Assembly: GCA_963806535.1 (NCBI GenBank)
Contig: CAWDYC010000005.1
Location: forward strand, 192,001-256,000
DNA: 64,000 nucleotides
Direction of reading: 5' to 3'
DNA from: Candidatus Bathyarchaeota archaeon
Lineage (GTDB): Archaea; Thermoproteota; Bathyarchaeia; Bathyarchaeales; Bathycorpusculaceae
The translations under genes and the position numbers were made by a program. This document shows, piece after piece, positions 2,985 to 61,434 of this stretch (position 1 is the first letter of the stretch; the number at the start of each line of letters is the position of its first letter). The notes beneath the pieces were generated by a model. The model had not been told where the DNA came from, did no database searches, and was given only the letters and a program-made list of their open reading frames with translations.

Positions 2985-3455
2985 ATGCAATTGCCAAAAA
3001 CTCTTCTTATCGTGTACTTTTCTAACACAGGTAAAACTGAAAAAATGGCTACACAAATAGCAAGAGGCGCCGAGACTGTGAGTGCAAAAGCGATTTTGAA
3101 AAAAGTTGAGAATTGCACTCTAGATGACTTGGCGGAAGCTGATGGTATAGCAATAGGTTCTCCAACGCACTATAGCAATATGTCATGGCAAATTAAGAGA
3201 CTGTTAGACGAAAAAATACTTGCCTTCTACACAAAGGGGCGCTCACTTAGAAACAAAGTGTGCGGCTGCTTCACATCCACAGGAGCATACTGTGATGGTA
3301 AAGAATGCCTCAGAATGTTAGAGTTAGCATTTGGAAATTCTTTAAAAATGAAAATGGTTCCTGGAATTATCCTTGAATCAAAAGATGTGGATGAAAGCAA
3401 TTTGTCTGAATGTTTTGAGTTCGGGCAAAAAATAGGCCGACAACTGATGCAGTAG
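2985..3455 (+). CDS. flavodoxin / WrbA-like FMN-binding protein
   Basis: YFSNTGKTEKMA FMN loop, ADGIAIGSPTHY. Confidence 0.88.
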   Translation: MQLPKTLLIVYFSNTGKTEKMATQIARGAETVSAKAILKKVENCTLDDLAEADGIAIGSPTHYSNMSWQIKRLLDEKILAFYTKGRSLRNKVCGCFTSTGAYCDGKECLRMLELAFGNSLKMKMVPGIILESKDVDESNLSECFEFGQKIGRQLMQ

Positions 3456-3515
3456 CATCCACTTTTTGAAAATGTTATGCGAAGCACTATAAGCCGCAAT
3501 AAATGTATGACGTAG

Positions 3516-3713
3516 ATGGAACTTAATCAGCAGAGAAGCCAAATCAAGTCGGGCATCCGCGTCAAAATCGTTTTGAAGCAAGATCAGCATAGCGGTAAGT
3601 TAACCGAAGGGGTAGTCAAAGATATTCTCACTAACAGTTCAACTCATCCTCACGGAATCAAAGTAAGGCTTACAGACGGCAAAGTCGGCAGAGTACAAAC
3701 AATAATAAAATAA
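3516..3713 (+). CDS. YwbE family small protein
   Basis: IVLKQDQ..GKLTEGVVKDILTNSSTHPHGIKVRLTDGKVGRV family pattern. Confidence 0.88.
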   Translation: MELNQQRSQIKSGIRVKIVLKQDQHSGKLTEGVVKDILTNSSTHPHGIKVRLTDGKVGRVQTIIK

Positions 3714-3728
3714 CGTAGCCTTTCAGCT

Positions 3729-3851
3729 TTAAATTACATAGTCTTTTTGTTTATATTTGGTTTCTATTTCGTTGAGTGTTAAAGCTGCTTCAAATATAAT
3801 TGCATCTACAGAGTCAAATTCTTGTTTTATTGCAACTTTTATTTGAGTCAA
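3729..3851 (-). CDS. putative 40-aa small protein (not in ORF track)
   Basis: TTG...TAA, MTQIKVAIKQEFDSVDAIIFEAALTLNEIETKYKQKDYVI. Fills the gap convergent to the YwbE gene. Confidence 0.4.
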   Translation of the reverse strand: MTQIKVAIKQEFDSVDAIIFEAALTLNEIETKYKQKDYVI

Positions 3852-4076
3852 AAGTCAATTCCCCAAATAAGAAACTAGTTCGCCTGCAAATTTTACCAGA
3901 TCATAACATGCTGGAATATCTCAGGCTATACTGTTGCTACTTTAATTACTCAAAACTGTTAATATTTGTTTGTGGTTTACTTTACACTACAACAAACGGG
4001 TCAGCGACGAGTTTTTTCGAGGTTATAAATTTTAATAGGGTGATGACATTAATGGGATTCTGTTTGTGTATTATCT

Positions 4077-6185
4077 ATGCCAAGGTTCAAGCAGATACCG
4101 CAGATTCAACAGTTAATGTCTAGAAAAGAGGTTATACGAAACATCGGCATAATCGCGCATATTGATCATGGAAAAACTACGCTTGCCGATTCCCTTTTGG
4201 CTGGTGCTGGTTTGCTTTCAACGACGATGGCTGGTCAAGCCCGCGTGCTTGATTATCTTGCGGAAGAGCAGAAACGTAAAATCACAATAAAAACCGCCAA
4301 CATAACCCTTCTTTATGAAGTGGCAGGTACCCCTTACATAATTAATCTTGTAGATACCCCTGGGCATGTGGATTTTACTGGCAAAGTTACCCGAGCCCTT
4401 CGAGTTATTGATGGTGTTGTGGTGGTTGTGGATGCTGTTGAAGAGATAATGGCTCAAACAGAAATCGTTACCCGGCAAGCATTAGAAGAACGGGTCCGAC
4501 CGGTGCTTTTCATCAATAAAGTTGACCGACTGATAACAGAGTTGCATCTTAATGAAGAGCAAATTCAAAAGAAACTCGATCACATAATCAGCAGCTTTAA
4601 CGATCTAATCGAACTCTTCTGTGAAGAGCCCTTCAAAAACCAGTGGAAAATTGACGCTTCTCAGGGTAATGTAGCTTTTGGCGCAGCATTATATGGATGG
4701 GGCTTCACGCTGAATAAAGCAAAAGAAAAAGGCTTCAAATTCTCCGATATAATCAAAGCCTATTCAATTGGTGAAGGAACAAAACTTCAAAAAATCTTTC
4801 CCGTTTATGAAGCGATTTTTGAAATGGCTGTTCACAGGGTTCCAAATCCAAAAGATGCGCAAGCCTACAGAATCGAGAAAATTTGGGATGGGCACATTGG
4901 CTCGCCGATTGGCGAAGCATTGACTAAATGTAGTGATGAAGGTCCAGCAGTTTTTTGCGTGACAAACGTTTATTCTGATGAGAGAAGCGGTACTGTGGCA
5001 ACGGGAAGATTGTTTTCAGGTAAAGTCCAGAAAGGTGATAAGTTGCATCTTGTTGATGCATTAACTGAAACTGTGATTCAGCAAGTTGCCATTGATATGG
5101 GTTCCCTAAGAGAAGAAGTCGCGTCAGTCTCAGCAGGTAACTTGGCATCTTTAACTTTAACTGGAGAGATTAAAGCCGGCGAAACTCTTGTGGACATTGC
5201 CCATAAAATTTCCATGGTTCCTTTTGAAGGCATATGTTACATTTCCGAAGCCGTCGTAACCTTAGCAATTGAACCCAAAAAACCACAAGATATTCCTGTT
5301 TTGCTTGAGGGCTTGGAGAAGCTTGCAAATGAAGACCCTAACCTAAAAATTATTGTTGATAAGGAAACAGGCGAATATCTGCTCAGCGGCATGGGAGAAT
5401 TACATTTAGAAGTTTCTCTAAATCAGCTGAAAAACTTGAGTGGTAACTTGCAACTAGGTGTATCGTCACCTCGAGTTGTCTACATGGAAACAGTTGAGAC
5501 TCAAGGTATAGTGGCTTTGACAAAAAGTCCTAATAAGCAGAATAGTTTCTGGGTTCAAATTTCTCCAGATGGAAAAGAAATCGAAGAATCAGCAAATATC
5601 CTTTCAGTCGATGAACATCGAAATGTTCTCATAGATTGCAGCGGCAAAACAGAGCCTCTTTCAGAGGAAGTTTTAGAAGCTATTATTGGCGGCTTTGAGT
5701 TTGCTTGTAAAGCTGGTCCATTATGCGGCGAACCAGTACGTCATTTGAAGGTTGATTTGGTTGATTTTCAACTAAATGAGGAATTTGACTCAACAGAGAT
5801 TATGCGTGGCGTTGGAAAAGCAATTTTCGGTTCTTTCTTGACGGCTCAGCCAATACTGTTAGAACCTGTTTACAAAATAATAATCACTGTTACATCAGAA
5901 TTAACGAGTGAAATTTCACGAATACTATGTAGCAGAAGGGGCAAAGTTACCTCATTTGAACAGAAAGGACTTCAAGCAGTTATCAATGGTTTTATTCCAG
6001 TTTCTGAAGCCTTCGGTTTCTCCAAGGAGTTACGGACTACAACTTCGGGAAGAGCTTTTTGGCAATCATTTTTCGATCATTGGGAAAAAATGCCTCCAAA
6101 ATTAAGTTTTCAGGTAATAACTGATATGCGCCAACGTAAAGGTCTCGCACTAGAAGTGCCTAAACCTGATAAGTTTACGGAGTAG
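4077..6185 (+). CDS. elongation factor EF-2 paralogue (aEF-2p-like, lacks diphthamide HRG loop)
   Basis: AHIDHGKTT, RKITI, DTPGHVDF, NKVD, GMGELHL, GPLCGEP, LLEP, LRTTTSGRA. The domain IV loop reads NEEFDSTEI instead of HED..HRG. Confidence 0.9.
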   Translation: MPRFKQIPQIQQLMSRKEVIRNIGIIAHIDHGKTTLADSLLAGAGLLSTTMAGQARVLDYLAEEQKRKITIKTANITLLYEVAGTPYIINLVDTPGHVDFTGKVTRALRVIDGVVVVVDAVEEIMAQTEIVTRQALEERVRPVLFINKVDRLITELHLNEEQIQKKLDHIISSFNDLIELFCEEPFKNQWKIDASQGNVAFGAALYGWGFTLNKAKEKGFKFSDIIKAYSIGEGTKLQKIFPVYEAIFEMAVHRVPNPKDAQAYRIEKIWDGHIGSPIGEALTKCSDEGPAVFCVTNVYSDERSGTVATGRLFSGKVQKGDKLHLVDALTETVIQQVAIDMGSLREEVASVSAGNLASLTLTGEIKAGETLVDIAHKISMVPFEGICYISEAVVTLAIEPKKPQDIPVLLEGLEKLANEDPNLKIIVDKETGEYLLSGMGELHLEVSLNQLKNLSGNLQLGVSSPRVVYMETVETQGIVALTKSPNKQNSFWVQISPDGKEIEESANILSVDEHRNVLIDCSGKTEPLSEEVLEAIIGGFEFACKAGPLCGEPVRHLKVDLVDFQLNEEFDSTEIMRGVGKAIFGSFLTAQPILLEPVYKIIITVTSELTSEISRILCSRRGKVTSFEQKGLQAVINGFIPVSEAFGFSKELRTTTSGRAFWQSFFDHWEKMPPKLSFQVITDMRQRKGLALEVPKPDKFTE

Positions 6186-23080: not shown

Positions 23081-25147
23081 TTAATTTGTTTTAGCTATGG
23101 CACCTTTAGTGTACGGTACAAACTCTCTAATTTGCTCAATCGAAGTTTTCCCAGCTTTTTCCCGCTGCTCTTTTGAAAGCTTAAACGTTAATGACTTGAG
23201 AATTTGTTTCAAAAGATCTTTCCCTTGAGTGTCCCCCGGCGATAAGACTACAAATGCTTTGGTTTTTGCTTTGACTGCATCCACGGGTCCACCGACATAA
23301 CTTGCTTCTTCAGAGACAATTATCCCAACAGCCGTTTTAAGAGGCACATTTCGCGTCCAATTCCGTTTGCCGACAACGGCAAAAGCGCCGTGGGGAACAG
23401 ATTCGCCTGAAGGCCCACTCTTGCTTAGCTGATCAACTTTAACCCAGTAAACATCCGCTGAACCAGCATTTTCACGCCAAGCCCGCGAAAAAGACGCCGC
23501 AAACTCTCCAGCTTCATGAAGCGTCTGGTCACTTATCGTTTTGCCCTCAGCTTTAACAACGACAAACGGCGCACCTGAAATTTCAGCATGAAAAACCACA
23601 TCCTCCTGGGCAGCGTACTTCTTAACAAGCACTTCGTTGCTCACTGTATCTTTGCCAGCGACCACCAAGAAACCGTCAGAAGAGGTAAACCAATGGAACT
23701 TTTCAAACCACTCCTTATTCTCCATCTCAACCTTTCGTTTCGAGAGAGCTTCCATAATTTCCGCTGGCTTAAGGTTCTTCAAGGCTTCAGCATCGCTTAG
23801 CTCTTTCTCGATTTTTGCTAATTTTTTCCGTGAATCCTCCAACGCAGTTAATGCGCCATCAGATTTCTGTTTGGCTTTTTTGCCGCGATCATAATATTCT
23901 GCTGCATTATCAAAAAGGGAATTCCTCAAAGCGAAGCTAAAATGAAAGTTGTCCATAAAGAGGTTTAATGCAAGGTTTTTGCCGTCAAACCCTTCGATGT
24001 ACGCTTCAGGTATTTTTCCTGTTTTCTTTGCAACTAACGCATCTGCGATTACAGTGTTCCAATCTTTGCCTTGTTGATTGGCTTTTAGGAGTTTTTCTTG
24101 GAATGTTTGGAGTTCGCTATAGTGAGCATAGATGGTGTCGCCGATTAGTTTGTCACGTTCAGCTTTAGCTTCATCCTCATGAATGGATTTTTCCTGTTCA
24201 GCCACGACACGTCGCAGCCGTTCAGCCTCTCTTTTTAACTTGTCAACTTCAACACGGTCAATCGCCCTTTCAGCAACAGTTACTCTCAGGTAAAACTCAT
24301 CTAAAGCCTGATTAAACGAATCGTAAATTTGTGTTTTGAAGCCTTCATAACGCTTAAGCTTGAGAGGTACAACATCCAAGAAATCGCCGTCTTCACCCAG
24401 AACAATGCATGGCTCCAAATGCTTACTTGAAATAGGCAAAAGCAAATCTTGAAGCGACCCAAAAATGCCCTCAATTTCACCTTTTGATATGGTGTTGGCT
24501 GCTTTAGTTTTTTCTACTTTGGCCCTGAGAAGGATTTCTTCAGCGTAAACTCCGCCCACACCCAAGAAACGAGCTATTGACCTAACAACTTCAGTTTCTC
24601 CTGCGTTTTTTAGGTTTTCTTCCAACTCAATTTGGGTTACTCTAAAAGGGTTTTTGCTGATTGATGGCGGAAGCTGAAGAACTACATTGTGAAGGATGTC
24701 ACGGTCACGCATTTTTTTGAAAGCCAAAGCGTGAATGATCACATTTTGTTCGTTTGTTAATATGATGTTGCCTTCACCGAAAAGCTCTACAACAAGCTTT
24801 AACAAACCAGTTTTTGTGCGGAAGCCAACAGTTACTATCCTTTCAAACTCATACTGATCAATCCCAGCCACCCAAGCGCTACGTAAATATTTTCTCAGAG
24901 CCATACAGAATGCTGGTGGTTCAGACGGGTTTTCTTCAGCATAACTAGTGGCGTGTAATCTTCGGCCTGCTTCAATAACTAATCTAATCGGTGGAGTGTC
25001 TGTCTTGTGGAGCTTAAACACTAAGGTTTTTTCATCAAGTTGGTAGATATTGTTCACTCTGGAATCTGCGATTACCCCTTTTAGTTCTTGGATTGCCGCG
25101 GCAATATCAAAGCTAGAGAAGTCTTTTTTTTGCAATACACCCATCAA
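23081..25147 (-). CDS. rqcH: ribosome quality control NEMF/Rqc2 homologue (NFACT family)
   Basis: FSSFDI, PPAFCMALRKYL, ELFGEGNIIL, WFEKFHWF.SSDGFLVVAGKD, FHAEISGAP, HGAFAVVGKRNW. Confidence 0.92.
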   Translation of the reverse strand: MMGVLQKKDFSSFDIAAAIQELKGVIADSRVNNIYQLDEKTLVFKLHKTDTPPIRLVIEAGRRLHATSYAEENPSEPPAFCMALRKYLRSAWVAGIDQYEFERIVTVGFRTKTGLLKLVVELFGEGNIILTNEQNVIIHALAFKKMRDRDILHNVVLQLPPSISKNPFRVTQIELEENLKNAGETEVVRSIARFLGVGGVYAEEILLRAKVEKTKAANTISKGEIEGIFGSLQDLLLPISSKHLEPCIVLGEDGDFLDVVPLKLKRYEGFKTQIYDSFNQALDEFYLRVTVAERAIDRVEVDKLKREAERLRRVVAEQEKSIHEDEAKAERDKLIGDTIYAHYSELQTFQEKLLKANQQGKDWNTVIADALVAKKTGKIPEAYIEGFDGKNLALNLFMDNFHFSFALRNSLFDNAAEYYDRGKKAKQKSDGALTALEDSRKKLAKIEKELSDAEALKNLKPAEIMEALSKRKVEMENKEWFEKFHWFTSSDGFLVVAGKDTVSNEVLVKKYAAQEDVVFHAEISGAPFVVVKAEGKTISDQTLHEAGEFAASFSRAWRENAGSADVYWVKVDQLSKSGPSGESVPHGAFAVVGKRNWTRNVPLKTAVGIIVSEEASYVGGPVDAVKAKTKAFVVLSPGDTQGKDLLKQILKSLTFKLSKEQREKAGKTSIEQIREFVPYTKGAIAKTN

Positions 25148-25309: not shown

Positions 25310-25609
25310 ATGACACCAATAACGCAGCTTTACTGGATAAGAGTCATCTTAGGCATAATCTCAGGAGCAATAAGTGCAGTCTTAGTTATCTTACTAAATA
25401 CTCCAAAAGACATTACCTCTTTAGTCAACGGTTTTACAATAGCCCTAATACTGTACCTGGTAACTTACTACATTTTGAAAGCATCATTTAAGAATAAGAT
25501 CGAAAAACAAGGAAAAATATTAAGCACAGCAATAGCGATGTACTTTTTCTCCTGGCTATCATTCTTCGTACTGTTTTATACGATAATTTGGGTAGCTACA
25601 GGCCATTAA
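25310..25609 (+). CDS. small 3-TM membrane protein, EMC6/Rab5ip-like
   Basis: YWIRVILGIISGAISA...YLVTYY...YFFSWLSFFVLFY, 3-TM layout recognised by eye. Confidence 0.7.
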   Translation: MTPITQLYWIRVILGIISGAISAVLVILLNTPKDITSLVNGFTIALILYLVTYYILKASFKNKIEKQGKILSTAIAMYFFSWLSFFVLFYTIIWVATGH

Positions 25610-25618
25610 ACAAGTTTT

Positions 25619-26080
25619 TTATTCGTTTTCGTTTTTCTGGAAAAAATTAGCGATTGTAGCTTGACTCTTGTCACTTCTCACGGTCTCTATTTTTTCCTCT
25701 CCACTCGCCGCTTTCTCGATGCTGTTTTGTGGAGGTGCGATTTCCATGCGTGTTAAAATTCGCATGCAATCTGCCCATGCAGAGAAGTATCCTCGGTCAA
25801 AATCTCCATGTAAACCATTACGCATGTGATCAAGAAACTCTTTCCTGTAAGCGTGCAGATTTACTTTGTCACTTAAATCGAGCTTTGTAAAGAAAGCATA
25901 GTCATCATTGCTGTTTTTGCGTGAAAGATACATTCCGTATAAAGCTCGGAAGTATCCCCTGTTCCAATCGGTTTTCTGCATTTTCTGTTTGACTCTTTCC
26001 AACTCTCGTTCAGCTTCAGTGAATTGTCTGCTGACTATGAGTTGGAAATACCTTGCAACTAGGGCTTGTGGTATAGGCAT
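25619..26080 (-). CDS. hypothetical helical protein with C-terminal PIP box, downstream of radA
   Basis: Starts 2 nt after the radA stop. QATIANFF near the C-terminus. Confidence 0.85.
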   Translation of the reverse strand: MPIPQALVARYFQLIVSRQFTEAERELERVKQKMQKTDWNRGYFRALYGMYLSRKNSNDDYAFFTKLDLSDKVNLHAYRKEFLDHMRNGLHGDFDRGYFSAWADCMRILTRMEIAPPQNSIEKAASGEEKIETVRSDKSQATIANFFQKNENE

Positions 26081-26082
26081 AT

Positions 26083-27162
26083 TTACCGTCGACTCTTGCT
26101 TGCTTTCTCAGCTTTCTCTTCTTCTGAGACATCCTCTATACCGTTCTCTGTTACTTTAATTATTTCCTCTCCCTCGGGCAAATAGGGGCTTGAAACTAGT
26201 CTTGCAATTCGTATAGGTCCATGAGGCGCTCTGCGGAGGTAGATGCGTGTGTGACTTGTGTGACCGACGATGTTACCGCCTATGGGGTGAATTGCGTCGC
26301 CGAAAAATTGGTCGGGTTTTGCCATTACTTGGTTAGTTACGACCGCCACAGCGTTGAATGCTCTAGCTAAAGCAATTAGTTTATGCATGTGTTTATTGAG
26401 TTTTTGCTGCCTTGAAGCCAACATTTCTCTTCCGAGATATTCACTTCGGAAATGCGCTGTTAACGAATCAACTATAATTAATTTGATGTTGTTTGCCTTA
26501 ATTATTTCGTCAGCGTTTTCAAGTAGGAACATTTGGTGATCTGAAGTGTACGCTTCAGCGTAAATGATGTTTTTAACTACTGTTTCAGGATCTAACCCTA
26601 AGAATTTAGCCATCTGCACTATACGTTCAAGCCTGAAAGTGTTTTCTGTATCCACATACAAAGCTCCCCCATTAAGTCCCCCTCTTTCAGGCGGAAGTTG
26701 AACGTTCACGCATAATTGATGGCACATCTGGCTTTTTCCACTGCCATATTCACCGTAAAATTCTGTTATGGTTTGTGTTTCTAAGCCGTCACCCACAACT
26801 TTGTCTAAGGCTTTGCTGCCTGTGCTTAGTCGCAGAACGTTTTTGCGCATTTTGAAAAGTTCATCTGCGCGGATGAAGGAAATGCCGATGGCTGATCGTG
26901 CTGCTTCAATAATTTGGAACGCCTTTTTTTCGCTTACCCCAACCGGTTCAAGTTCCCGCGAGGTAGCCATTGCTAAAGACTCGACAGTGTGGTAACCGAG
27001 TTCTCGGAGTTTCTGGGCCGTGGCGGGTCCAACGCCTGGAAGGTCTTCTATGAATTGGTATTTTTCCTTATTTAGTTCCATTTGTGTTTTTGGGGTTTCA
27101 GATTCTTGTCCTTCATCCTGTTCCCTTTGATTTTCAGCATCTTCTTCAGTCATTAATTCCAC
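26083..27162 (-). CDS. radA: DNA repair and recombination protein RadA
   Basis: LPGVGPATA HhH, GEYGSGKSQ Walker A, YVDTENTFR, IVDSLTAHFRSEY.GR, GGNIVGH. Confidence 0.97.
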   Translation of the reverse strand: MELMTEEDAENQREQDEGQESETPKTQMELNKEKYQFIEDLPGVGPATAQKLRELGYHTVESLAMATSRELEPVGVSEKKAFQIIEAARSAIGISFIRADELFKMRKNVLRLSTGSKALDKVVGDGLETQTITEFYGEYGSGKSQMCHQLCVNVQLPPERGGLNGGALYVDTENTFRLERIVQMAKFLGLDPETVVKNIIYAEAYTSDHQMFLLENADEIIKANNIKLIIVDSLTAHFRSEYLGREMLASRQQKLNKHMHKLIALARAFNAVAVVTNQVMAKPDQFFGDAIHPIGGNIVGHTSHTRIYLRRAPHGPIRIARLVSSPYLPEGEEIIKVTENGIEDVSEEEKAEKASKSRR

Positions 27163-27410
27163 ACTTTGATGATGATGTAATGTTTGGCATATTTAAAACA
27201 ACCGAAGAATGGGGGTTATCTACTGAGTGGAGGGGTGAGTGAAAGTGAACCCATGAGAAGTTATCTTTTCTAGGATAAAAAGGCTATAACCTGTTTGAGC
27301 GCAATATGGGATTCTATTTGGCTCATCTATTGAACCCTAGGATGCAGCGAGGGAGATAAAGAAGTAGACAGCAAGGAGAAACCAGAGCCCAAACCCGCAT
27401 TTGTAATTTT

Positions 27411-59458: not shown

Positions 59459-60562
59459 TTAACTTGTTTGGAAAAAGCTTGTTAATCGCTTCTGCTGCGG
59501 CTCTTCTTTAACAAAACTGCCGATTCTAACTCCCGCCCGCCTGATTGGGAGTTCCGAATCTGCAAGATATTTTTCGAAAAGTTCCTGTGCTCCTTTGTAG
59601 ATAGTTTCTTTGTCTTTTGCCGGTTTATCCAAAGTCTTCGATCGGCTCTTGCCCGAAAGATCAGTCATAACTGCACTTATTCCAACAAGGCGAAAACTCA
59701 TGTTTTTTGAGGTAAATTCATTACAAATATCCTCAATTTGCTCGTGAATCTTTGCCATAATTACCGAAATGTCGCGAGTGTCTTCTTTTAGGGTGCCCAT
59801 TCGCCCTATAGATCCAGCTTCGCCTGTTTCTTGTACGGGCTCGTTGTCGATACCTCTTGCGGCGTCATGGAAATATAGTCCGAGACTTTTTCCAAAAACT
59901 GCAACAAGTTTCTGAACATCAACTTTCTCCAAGTCGCCAATGGTTTTTATGCCCATGGAATCCATTTTTGCACTTATCTTTTTGCCAACTCCCAAAAGGC
60001 GATCAACGGTCAACGGCGACATAAAGCATCCGACTTCATCCGGAGTAATAATGGTTAAGCCGTCGGGTTTTTGGCTGTCACACGCAATTTTAGAAACAAG
60101 TTTGTTCGGTCCGACACCTATTGTGAAAGATATGCCCACCTGCTTTTTGACTTCAGTTTTAATTTCTTGAGCATAATCTTTTGCCCTCTCAAAGCTGCAT
60201 TGAACTTGCTCTGTAACATCCAAGTAAGCCTCATCAATACTGACTTGCTCCATATTGGTTGCATAGTTGCTAAAAATCTGCATTATGCGTTCGCTTATTT
60301 CTTCATAATATTCATGGTCAACTGGCAAGAAAACGGCATCAGTTCCTTCCAATTTTCGGATTGCTAGGAACAGGGGCATTCCTGATTTAACGCCACATTT
60401 TCTGGCAATATAGTTGCTCGTACTTACTGCTCCGCTTATCTCAGTGCGTCCTGAGTAGACGCCTACAACAACAGGCTTATCCTTCAGAGCTGGGTTGCGT
60501 AGCTCTTCACATTGGGCAAAGAAATAATCAAAATCTGCCAGCATAACAACGCGGTTCTGCAT
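59459..60562 (-). CDS. dinB: Y-family DNA polymerase IV
   Basis: DFDYFFAQ, SNY.AR..GVKSGM, SIDEAYLD, KPDG, C-terminal PIP box QKRLTSFF. ATG at 60562. Confidence 0.95.
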   Translation of the reverse strand: MQNRVVMLADFDYFFAQCEELRNPALKDKPVVVGVYSGRTEISGAVSTSNYIARKCGVKSGMPLFLAIRKLEGTDAVFLPVDHEYYEEISERIMQIFSNYATNMEQVSIDEAYLDVTEQVQCSFERAKDYAQEIKTEVKKQVGISFTIGVGPNKLVSKIACDSQKPDGLTIITPDEVGCFMSPLTVDRLLGVGKKISAKMDSMGIKTIGDLEKVDVQKLVAVFGKSLGLYFHDAARGIDNEPVQETGEAGSIGRMGTLKEDTRDISVIMAKIHEQIEDICNEFTSKNMSFRLVGISAVMTDLSGKSRSKTLDKPAKDKETIYKGAQELFEKYLADSELPIRRAGVRIGSFVKEEPQQKRLTSFFQTS

Positions 60563-61434
60563 TACGTTGCGCTTCCTTTGCTTTTTGGCATTAGCCAAGA
60601 CCCATCACAGACTGCTGTGTTTAACTGATCTAAACCCTCTCGGCAAACACCAAACTTCATCCCTTTAGCCTCTGCCAAATCTCGAATATCCTTAAGAAGC
60701 TTATATCTTAGGTCTTTTGGTAAAAGAGTGCTGCCGCCGATTTTTTCGCCTTGCTGAAAATAAAGCGGTTTAAGCTTCTCCGCTATCTTTGGCATGGCTT
60801 GGTTAAGTCGCATCCAATTGTCCGCTTTTGCCTTATAAGTTGAGCAGGTAACGTGTTTAACACCTATGCTTGCTAGCTCTATGATGAGTTTTTGCGGTTG
60901 GTCATTTACTAATGGTATAATCGGATCTATTCTGACGGAGACGGGTATGCCTGCTTTGATTAAGTCTTGGGCCGCTCTAAGCCGTAGAGACGGTGGAGGT
61001 GCCCACGGTTCAATCAGTTTCGCCACGTTATCGTCGTCAGTGGTTATGGTTAACGCGACCGTTGAAGGAATTTTTGTTAGTAGGTCGTCGTCTCTGGTTA
61101 CGATGTTGCTTTTGGTGATGATTTGGATTTTGCAGTTGCTTTCAGTTAGAATTTCAAGGCAACGCCTTGTTAAGCCAGTGGACGCTTCTACACGTGGATA
61201 TGGGTCAGATGAATTAGCTATTGAAATTGTTTCGCCTTTGAGTTTTGCTGCTTCCCGCTTCAAAGTTGCAAGCAGGTCTTTTTTTGGTCTGCAATCGCTG
61301 AAACTTGGAATGTAGCTGGAGGCGTAACAGTAGATGCATTGGTGGTCGCATCCAGTGTAAGGGTTAAACGTAAGCTTCGGTGGGCAAGTGCAGAGGCCAG
61401 AACGCCAAGGGTCAAAATTTGTAATTAACGGCAC
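60562..61434 (-). CDS. radical SAM protein, SplB/spore photoproduct lyase-like
   Basis: NPYTGCDHQCIYCYA, SSDPY, ITKS, RIDPIIP. TAATG overlap with dinB. Confidence 0.9.
   Translation of the reverse strand: MPLITNFDPWRSGLCTCPPKLTFNPYTGCDHQCIYCYASSYIPSFSDCRPKKDLLATLKREAAKLKGETISIANSSDPYPRVEASTGLTRRCLEILTESNCKIQIITKSNIVTRDDDLLTKIPSTVALTITTDDDNVAKLIEPWAPPPSLRLRAAQDLIKAGIPVSVRIDPIIPLVNDQPQKLIIELASIGVKHVTCSTYKAKADNWMRLNQAMPKIAEKLKPLYFQQGEKIGGSTLLPKDLRYKLLKDIRDLAEAKGMKFGVCREGLDQLNTAVCDGSWLMPKSKGSAT

Follow-up and report, generated by a model that had tools for sequence, protein, structure and literature searches.

What does a small gene that starts immediately behind radA do, and does the short peptide near the end of its product tie the recombinase to the sliding clamp? 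This question is raised by a 153-aa open reading frame (ORF) in a 64,000-nt stretch of DNA from a Candidatus Bathyarchaeota archaeon (assembly GCA_963806535.1, contig CAWDYC010000005.1, positions 192,001 to 256,000 of the forward strand). The whole stretch is referred to as the window, and coordinates given without a prefix are positions in it. A first-pass annotation of the window had proposed that the gene encodes an undescribed adaptor linking RadA recombination to PCNA (proliferating cell nuclear antigen), the sliding clamp. Our analysis identified a real, widespread and undescribed small protein family, whose gene is coupled to radA and which carries, in one order of Bathyarchaeia, a conserved tail resembling a PCNA-interacting protein (PIP) box. 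The reading we prefer, with a probability of roughly 0.4, is that the protein is an accessory factor of the radA operon, RecX-like by analogy, and a clamp-tethered modulator of RadA in the lineage of the window. To our knowledge, little is known about the control of archaeal RadA filaments beyond the RadA paralogues, and we know of no described archaeal factor that resembles RecX or Srs2. A small protein that appears to be co-translated with RadA across an ecologically dominant class, and that bears a putative clamp hook in part of it, is a concrete candidate for such a regulator.

A small gene coupled to radA

The radA unit of the window comprises the following elements:

25619–26080, minus strand: ORF of 153 codons with its ATG at 26078–26080, belonging to no known family; last gene of the radA unit
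26083–27162, minus strand: radA, encoding a full-length recombinase; an N-terminal helix-hairpin-helix (HhH) domain is present, as are SFIRA (polymerisation motif) and GEYGSGKS (Walker A)
27190–27198, minus strand: TATA-box-like element TTTTAAATA, read from the sequence, about 28 nt upstream of the radA GTG

The radA stop codon (TAA) occupies 26083–26085, leaving a spacer of 2 nt before the ATG of the ORF, exactly as the first-pass annotation had placed it. The element TTTTAAATA matches what we take to be the archaeal TATA consensus and is likely, on sequence grounds, the promoter of a transcription unit composed of radA and the 153-aa gene. The RadA protein of the window was recognised by the NCBIfam models NF003301 (455.6 bits; cut-off 259) and TIGR02236 (439.5 bits; cut-off 361) as well as by the Pfam families Rad51 (8.8e-85) and HHH_5 (8.6e-11; residues 39–89). 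Its profile-matched region is preceded by an acidic N-terminal extension of approximately 35 residues (MELMTEEDAENQREQDEGQESE...; 27055–27162). Among 16 public sequencing runs, none of those listed as containing the sampled words was of RNA, and all contained at most 0.10 of these words.

Gene neighbourhoods were compared at 69 loci, which were scored using tblastn and a hidden Markov model of the family. Of these, 29 belong to the order of the window (the window included), 20 to the remaining orders of its class and the last 20 to different classes. RadA of at least 55% identity is encoded directly upstream on the same strand at 27/29, 18/20 and 8/20 of these loci, respectively, amounting to 53/69. 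Two loci of the order have no adjacent RadA; one is situated at a contig start and the other is a second paralogue. At four more loci outside the class, a divergent full-length RadA-like gene (33–39% identity) lies upstream; the three of these four that were measured scored 214–254 bits with NF003301, just below the cut-off, and the N-terminal domain and Walker A are present. The coupling to radA, which had been noted for the window, is therefore conserved far beyond the genus (53/69 loci and the four with a divergent RadA). At the parseable loci with an adjacent RadA or RadA-like gene, the homologue mostly starts −4 to +6 nt from the radA stop, with extremes of −20 and +41 (L048 and L058 gave no usable value).

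The 153-aa family is close to a core gene of Bathyarchaeia. It was detected in 40/41 relatives, in 182/201 genomes of the class, including 119 of the 121 high-quality ones, and in 124/251 genomes of the phylum. Holders outside the class include Ca. Methanosuratincola (Methanomethylicia) and Ca. Terraquivivens (Nitrososphaeria), and several families of the phylum have no match at all (0/37, 0/19, 0/11, 0/9, 0/9 and 0/7). A word-index search returned 2140 homologues of the protein at E ≤ 0.01; among the 120 matches listed, identities were 78–92%, and every match was unnamed or 'hypothetical', one being labelled Candidatus Bathyarchaeia. At E ≤ 0.001, 203 matches were found among 1.84 billion cluster representatives, with only residues ~1–113 aligned. 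We call the family undescribed on the basis of full-text literature searches, which returned nothing on the 153-aa gene, and of family libraries (Pfam, NCBIfam and the Protein Data Bank (PDB)), in which no entry matches it. The first-pass annotation was correct on this point as well.

Predicted fold of the helical domain

The N-terminal part of the protein consists of the following elements:

25745–26080, minus strand: helical domain, residues 1–112, with six helices arranged as two three-helix units
25943–25966, minus strand: repeat signature 1, WNRGYFRA, residues 39–46, at the start of helix 3
25778–25801, minus strand: repeat signature 2, FDRGYFSA, residues 94–101, at the start of helix 6

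In an AlphaFold2 model based on a 77-sequence alignment, the first 110 residues form a confidently predicted block (predicted local distance difference test (pLDDT) score 89–98), and the helices span residues 5–16, 20–33, 38–55, 63–66, 72–87 and 93–111. Conservation within the family is highest in the two signatures (G42 invariant; Y43, A46, D95, G97, F99 and A101 at 90% or more), each of which opens the third helix of one three-helix unit in the model. Furthermore, the profiles of the N-terminal and C-terminal halves could be aligned with each other by hhalign (probability 80.5%, E 1.3e-5, 36 columns). Because of this alignment, the domain likely arose through duplication of a three-helix unit, and the internal repeat that had been read from the two signatures is substantiated by both the conserved columns and the half-to-half comparison.

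Comparison with known families and structures gave few leads. Pfam returned nothing better than E 0.16 for the 153-aa product and NCBIfam returned 0 families, while a PDB profile search gave a single match, a portal protein at E 0.5. Foldseek against the PDB found nothing at E ≤ 0.001 for the domain model. An exhaustive VIA-align comparison with 48,161 chains peaked at Z 5.9; 20 chains reached Z ≥ 5, but not one reached Z ≥ 8. Its top rows are proteins of the tetratricopeptide-repeat type, RapI (Z 5.9, 56 residues superposed) and SRP72 (Z 5.7), and scores at this level are common for helical models. Matches in the ESM Atlas were restricted to unnamed Bathyarchaeota clusters (0.89–0.90).

The GY[F]xA signatures were also considered as mimics of the FxxA polymerisation peptide of RadA and the BRC repeats. 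This idea was dropped, as both signatures start helices within the confidently folded domain. A complex model of RadA (31-row alignment) with residues 1–118 of the 153-aa protein (77-row alignment), run without controls, scored 0.00 and 0.00 against a mark of 0.32, a verdict of 'no answer' that counts neither for nor against binding.

A PIP-like peptide conserved in one order

The C-terminal part of the protein consists of the following elements:

25697–25744, minus strand: variable charged linker, residues 113–128, pLDDT 55–73
25640–25696, minus strand: conserved island in the disordered tail, residues 129–147, EKIETVRSDKS followed by QATIANFF
25640–25663, minus strand: PIP-box-like motif QATIANFF, residues 140–147

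The PIP box is defined as QxxhxxAA, that is, Q-x-x-[L/I/M]-x-x-[F/Y]-[F/Y], in PMC4929162 (this and the other papers cited here were available as excerpts), and QATIANFF fits the definition. The motif ends 6 residues from the C-terminus, and the tail as a whole (residues 113–153) was modelled by AlphaFold2 at pLDDT 55–60 without secondary structure. Thus both elements that the first-pass annotation had described, a charged flexible linker and a PIP-type motif behind it, are present at the positions it gave.

Conservation along the tail was assessed in 121 close sequences as the mean identity to the majority residue. The linker (residues 113–127) scored 0.57, the island (residues 128–145) 0.95, the motif 0.99 and the end after the motif 0.53. 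E132, D137, K138, Q140, T142 and F146 are kept in 121/121 of these sequences; position 143 holds I (115 sequences) or M (6), and a hydrophobic residue is found without exception at position 147 (L in 59, F in 32, I in 29 and M in 1). Diverged relatives and sister families carry variants of the motif, namely QTDIFQFL, QVSIEHFV, QITIEAFV, QASIVKYA, QTSIIQYS, QRTLTDFS, QSTLFDFE and QTTLDKFE. The pattern Q..[ILMV]..[FYW] occurs in 15/84 representative tails of at least 12 aa, compared with 0.6 expected and a maximum of 5 in 2000 shuffles, a comparison that is inflated by the shared ancestry of the tails. Judged from this conservation, a PIP-type tail is under selection in one order of Bathyarchaeia.

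Within that order, 18 of the 29 loci have a full-like motif and 2 more a truncated one; the count is 1/20 in other orders and 0/20 in other classes. Hence, the conservation by which the peptide was to be checked holds for all 121 close homologues and, in variant form, for sister families, and it hardly extends to the rest of the class and phylum. In one family of the class (L071, P0159 and P0256), the proteins have a conserved C-terminal EGLT[PQ]YLAESS instead of the PIP-like motif.

Comparison with known recombination and clamp proteins

In bacteria, the modulator RecX interacts with RecA (PMC3062782) and promotes the disassembly of RecA filaments (PMC9252578). RecX is a small all-helical protein whose gene stands immediately downstream of the recombinase gene, overlapping it or nearly so, and is co-transcribed with it; the 153-aa protein shares this gene position, with its 2-nt gap, and is modelled with two three-helix units. 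The two differ in that RecX has no clamp-binding tail and has RecA as its partner, whereas the recombinase here is of the RadA/Rad51 type; in addition, RecX has what we take to be three repeat units compared with two in the 153-aa protein. Homology to RecX was rejected, since 0/77 family members matched the RecX Pfam model even at E ≤ 10 and the query itself gave none at E ≤ 1. No RecX chain was present among the 50 best structural matches of the domain in VIA-align (best Z 5.9).

In eukaryotes, Srs2 and PARI are PCNA-bound anti-recombinases and embody the idea proposed here: a regulator directed at Rad51 is brought to the fork by a peptide that docks on PCNA. These are large helicases or helicase-like proteins, whereas the protein described here offers a 112-aa helical domain without an ATPase motif.

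Several archaeal proteins provide a parallel for the tail. Like the 153-aa protein, NucS, NreA and TIP (PMC4929162) and the Mre11 of Thermococcales (PMC6009593) bear a C-terminal or nearly C-terminal PIP-type peptide on a flexible tail, have a restricted phylogenetic range and are linked to repair or recombination genes. The excerpt of PMC4929162 also reports that nucS overlaps radA in T. kodakarensis, and the PIP-like motif of Thermococcales Mre11 places archaeal PCNA in recombination (PMC6009593). The globular domains of these proteins are unrelated to the present one, and their PCNA binding was demonstrated experimentally, whereas here it is predicted. No NucS or Nre model was found among the Pfam and NCBIfam matches of the 153-aa protein.

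PPB2, a small helical subunit of the PolB2–iRadA translesion 'mutasome', likewise has its gene directly behind one of the RadA family, in a system that also contains clamp-binding motifs, and the 153-aa protein could in principle be this subunit. As characterised in the excerpt of PMC11791011, PPB2 (arCOG07300) has three helices and, at its N-terminus, a conserved MGRT arm, and its gene adjoins those of PolB2 and iRadA, the latter without the N-terminal domain and the ATPase residues. The 153-aa protein has six helices and the N-terminus MPIPQALV, and its neighbour is a complete RadA with HHH_5 at residues 39–89, a Walker A motif and a score above the RadA equivalog cut-off. No polymerase was found among the ORFs of at least 150 aa between 17000 and 36000 of the window, where the large ORFs encode an NFACT protein, an aldehyde:ferredoxin oxidoreductase and a 566-aa product without a Pfam match. 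An identity with PPB2 is contradicted by three of its defining features (the helices with the MGRT arm, the iRadA neighbour and PolB2), and we consider it extremely improbable.

Proposed role of the 153-aa protein

We propose that the 153-aa protein would be made from the same transcript as RadA and would serve as an accessory factor of the recombinase. Its six-helix domain (residues 1–112), the ancestral and widely conserved part, may act on RadA or on RadA–DNA filaments, a contact that we infer from the gene coupling. The disordered C-terminal tail would have been gained in the window's order of Bathyarchaeia, and its peptide QATIANFF is predicted to dock in the hydrophobic pocket of PCNA, for which the genome has one gene (L030:1063–1818, minus strand). 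The factor would thereby be concentrated at loaded clamps, such as those at stalled forks or at the 3' end of a D-loop, where it would limit or clear RadA filaments near the clamp, and a polymerase would then take over. By analogy with RecX, Srs2 and PARI, from which the direction of the effect on RadA is taken, such limiting or clearing of filaments seems more likely than a simple recruitment of RadA.

Its confirmation would provide recombination biology with a new domain family, and with an evolutionary case of a clamp motif bolted onto an existing factor. A more ambitious version is doubtful, namely that these proteins, as the RecX of archaea, make up a novel family that regulates the recombinase by binding RadA through the duplicated three-helix domain, near-universal in Bathyarchaeia and present also in Methanomethylicia and thermophilic Nitrososphaeria. 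With a PIP tail acquired in one order, the protein would in this version be the first regulator of a Rad51-type recombinase that is tethered to PCNA in a prokaryote, similar to Srs2 and PARI in what it does without being a helicase.

A number of observations weigh against a clamp-tethered RadA modulator. With regard to the motif, position 8 is non-aromatic (L, I or M) in 89/121 close homologues, which departs from the strict definition, and it is S, A, V or E in several distant relatives. A single PIP match is within chance: 12 C-terminal matches were seen in the genome compared with approximately 9 expected in 3580 ORFs of at least 100 aa, an estimate based on 121 occurrences of Qxx[ILM]xx[FYW][FYWLI] in the 854,147 residues of its ORF translations. 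Moreover, the motif is missing in 8/29 loci of the order (one more was unparsed), in 19/20 of other orders and in 20/20 of other classes. With regard to RadA, the sequence and fold searches revealed no resemblance to RecX or to a mediator of recombination, and in the model the conserved GY/GF signatures lie inside the fold at helix starts, unlike an exposed FxxA peptide of the BRC type. An NFACT gene is as persistent a neighbour as radA (52/69 loci), and eight loci keep it without an adjacent radA; four of these belong to family f44, which includes Ca. Methanosuratincola (L054). Finally, the one fusion of RadA with a 153-aa homologue (P0271, 448 aa), which the public gene call reads as a single polypeptide and which in itself counts in favour of the modulator, occurs on one contig and may be an assembly or indel artefact because the two genes are only 2 nt apart.

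Some of these points can be answered and others reshape the proposal. The motif is more than a chance occurrence because it is conserved among homologues, not because of the match itself; at the DNA level, a degenerate pattern of the motif gave 12 matches in the window compared with 5.5 expected, a count that ignores the reading frame and is uninformative. As the motif is absent from most of the family, the core job of the domain would need no PCNA. Since the motif is lineage-restricted, an adaptor role towards PCNA can be no more than a derived trait of a domain which, in other lineages, functions untethered to the clamp. Accordingly, of the adaptor proposed in the first-pass annotation, the undescribed family, the coupling to radA and a motif under selection in this lineage are retained, while the absence of the motif from most of the family speaks against the link between RadA and PCNA as a general function. 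A second conserved neighbour, NFACT, had not been noted in that annotation.

The NFACT gene and the opposite-strand membrane protein

Downstream of the 153-aa gene, two further genes were located:

25310–25609, plus strand: predicted membrane protein of 99 aa, encoded opposite to the 153-aa gene and convergent with it; an equivalent ORF lies between the family gene and NFACT at 24/29 loci of the order, 8/20 of other orders and 8/20 of other classes (40/69)
23081–25147, minus strand: NFACT/Rqc2-type gene of 688 aa (PF05833, 3.1e-66; PF05670, 1.4e-33), the next gene on the same strand; found downstream on the same strand within 1.5 kb at 22/29 loci of the order, 13/20 of other orders and 17/20 of other classes (52/69)

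Pfam matches of the 99-aa ORF to membrane families were all below threshold. The 153-aa gene is the hinge of a conserved cluster composed of radA, the 153-aa gene, the opposite-strand membrane ORF and NFACT, which occurs across Bathyarchaeia and in other classes of Thermoproteota. The presence of NFACT weakens guilt by association with radA alone. It also suggests a different role, in which the 153-aa protein would be a partner of the membrane protein and of the NFACT/Rqc2-type ribosome-quality-control factor, the adjacency to radA being accidental and the tail no ligand of PCNA. The counts for both genes and the eight loci that adjoin NFACT without radA are consistent with such a role. In addition, 5/5 genomes of the phylum that do not have the 153-aa family carry radA and NFACT at a great distance from each other or on separate contigs, with nothing similar following radA, and the cluster is therefore found only where the 153-aa gene exists.

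The structure of the locus points the other way. Because the opposite-strand gene intervenes (where it is present), a transcript can be shared only with radA and not with NFACT, whereas the 153-aa gene appears translationally coupled to radA. Fourteen loci keep radA while NFACT is not within 1.5 kb, and among five longer homologues the only fusion to the product of another gene is to RadA, not to NFACT. A tail motif in common with RNase HII, PolB and DinB likewise points to DNA transactions. Taken together, we regard a partnership with NFACT as improbable. In the more ambitious version of the RadA modulator outlined above, the persistent cluster could moreover point to a new tie between recombination and the NFACT factor.

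At L064:2277–2990, outside the class, the gene directly upstream of the homologue is not radA but that of the PCNA-binding nuclease NucS, with NFACT downstream. At L046 (G411:C9), an insertion of ~1.5 kb interrupts the radA upstream of the homologue (~3399–5972); tblastn matches it in two pieces, covering residues 26–182 and 174–358. This pattern is compatible with an intein, and L074 may be similar.

Paralogues and longer homologues

Paralogues were found in which the helical domain is fused to other modules. In one, at L029:3890–4330, an N-terminal C2H2 zinc finger (CLLCGKEYNTQRGLFSHLTRVH) precedes it. In four others (P0144, P0175, P0200 and P0265), an N-terminal domain of about 100 aa with winged-helix topology stands before the helical domain. 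Foldseek with a winged-helix-like paralogue gave local matches to winged-helix proteins at a probability of 0.95–1.0 but with E > 0.01, and its weak top matches were GntR/FadR regulators (E 0.017–0.02). These fusions to nucleic-acid-binding modules fit a role of the domain at nucleic acid.

They are also compatible with a regulatory module, in which the domain would be a sensor or oligomerisation unit of the kind joined to DNA-binding heads in the paralogues, and the stand-alone protein would either adjust how the radA unit is transcribed or titrate such a regulator. The winged-helix heads, whose weak GntR/FadR matches combine a winged helix with a helical domain, and the zinc-finger-fused paralogue argue for it. 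However, the stand-alone form has no DNA-binding head, the domain-alone model matches no FadR-type domain, confidence in the P0175 model is modest (mean pLDDT 66.5) and a clamp-type tail would be unexpected on a transcription factor. A regulatory module is accordingly very unlikely in our estimate, with only the PPB2 identity discussed above being less likely still.

A search for longer homologues gave 5 matches in all. Apart from P0271, these are P0272–P0275 (~300 aa), in which the first helical hairpin (RQFTEAExELExxK) is amplified approximately nine-fold before a normal domain; the PIP-like tail is kept.

Tails of expected clamp clients in these genomes

Of the 12 C-terminal pattern matches in the genome, four fall in proteins whose best matches are to expected clamp clients:

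59459–60598 of the window, minus strand: DinB (NF002677, 272.7 bits; cut-off 256), ending in QKRLTSFFQTS
G000:C8:37309–39609: PolB, C-terminal tail QRTLKEFY, match below the curated cut-off
G000:C8:81782–82618: NreA-like protein, C-terminal tail QKKITDFF, match below the curated cut-off
G000:C3:327344–328702: TIGR00375-family PHP protein, C-terminal tail QMNMSDFF, match below the curated cut-off

We take the TIGR00375 family to be the EndoQ family. The DinB tail, QKRLTSFF, is indeed of the same kind as that of the 153-aa protein, in agreement with the first-pass annotation.

RNase HII, which is described as a core archaeal PCNA partner in the excerpt of PMC4929162, shows a related ending. In 23 relatives it mostly ends in Q-x-[KT]-L-x-COOH, for example QQKLV, QTKLV or QKKLA (own gene G000:C8:145981–146643; L094–L122), which looks like a shortened clamp-binding motif without the aromatic pair. 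Some homologues of the 153-aa protein end in the shorter Q-x-x-L-x-COOH as well, and in genome G030 RNase HII ends in KAKQTKLV and the 153-aa homologue in KRIVQTKLV. Such endings on accepted clamp clients count in favour of the clamp-tethered modulator.

The conservation of the tail and the shared QTKLV end would be explained equally well by a clamp client that makes no contact with RadA. The domain would then bind DNA, a recombination intermediate or a replisome protein, the tail would bring it to PCNA, and the linkage to radA would reflect nothing more than co-regulation of repair genes. The paralogues with a C2H2 finger or a winged-helix-like domain hint at nucleic acid in this case too, and at L064 it is the PCNA-binding NucS that replaces radA upstream. 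Nevertheless, genes that overlap or are spaced by 2 nt across several classes usually encode co-acting proteins, the 112-residue domain is small, acidic to neutral and without a recognisable DNA-binding motif, and the clamp motif is absent in most members of the family. A clamp client without RadA contact therefore seems unlikely, although it is the strongest competitor of the clamp-tethered RadA modulator that we prefer. The organism's own Fen1 (G000:C3:246892–247926) ends in KSKMTLEKWFG, which is PIP-like with K in place of Q at the first position.

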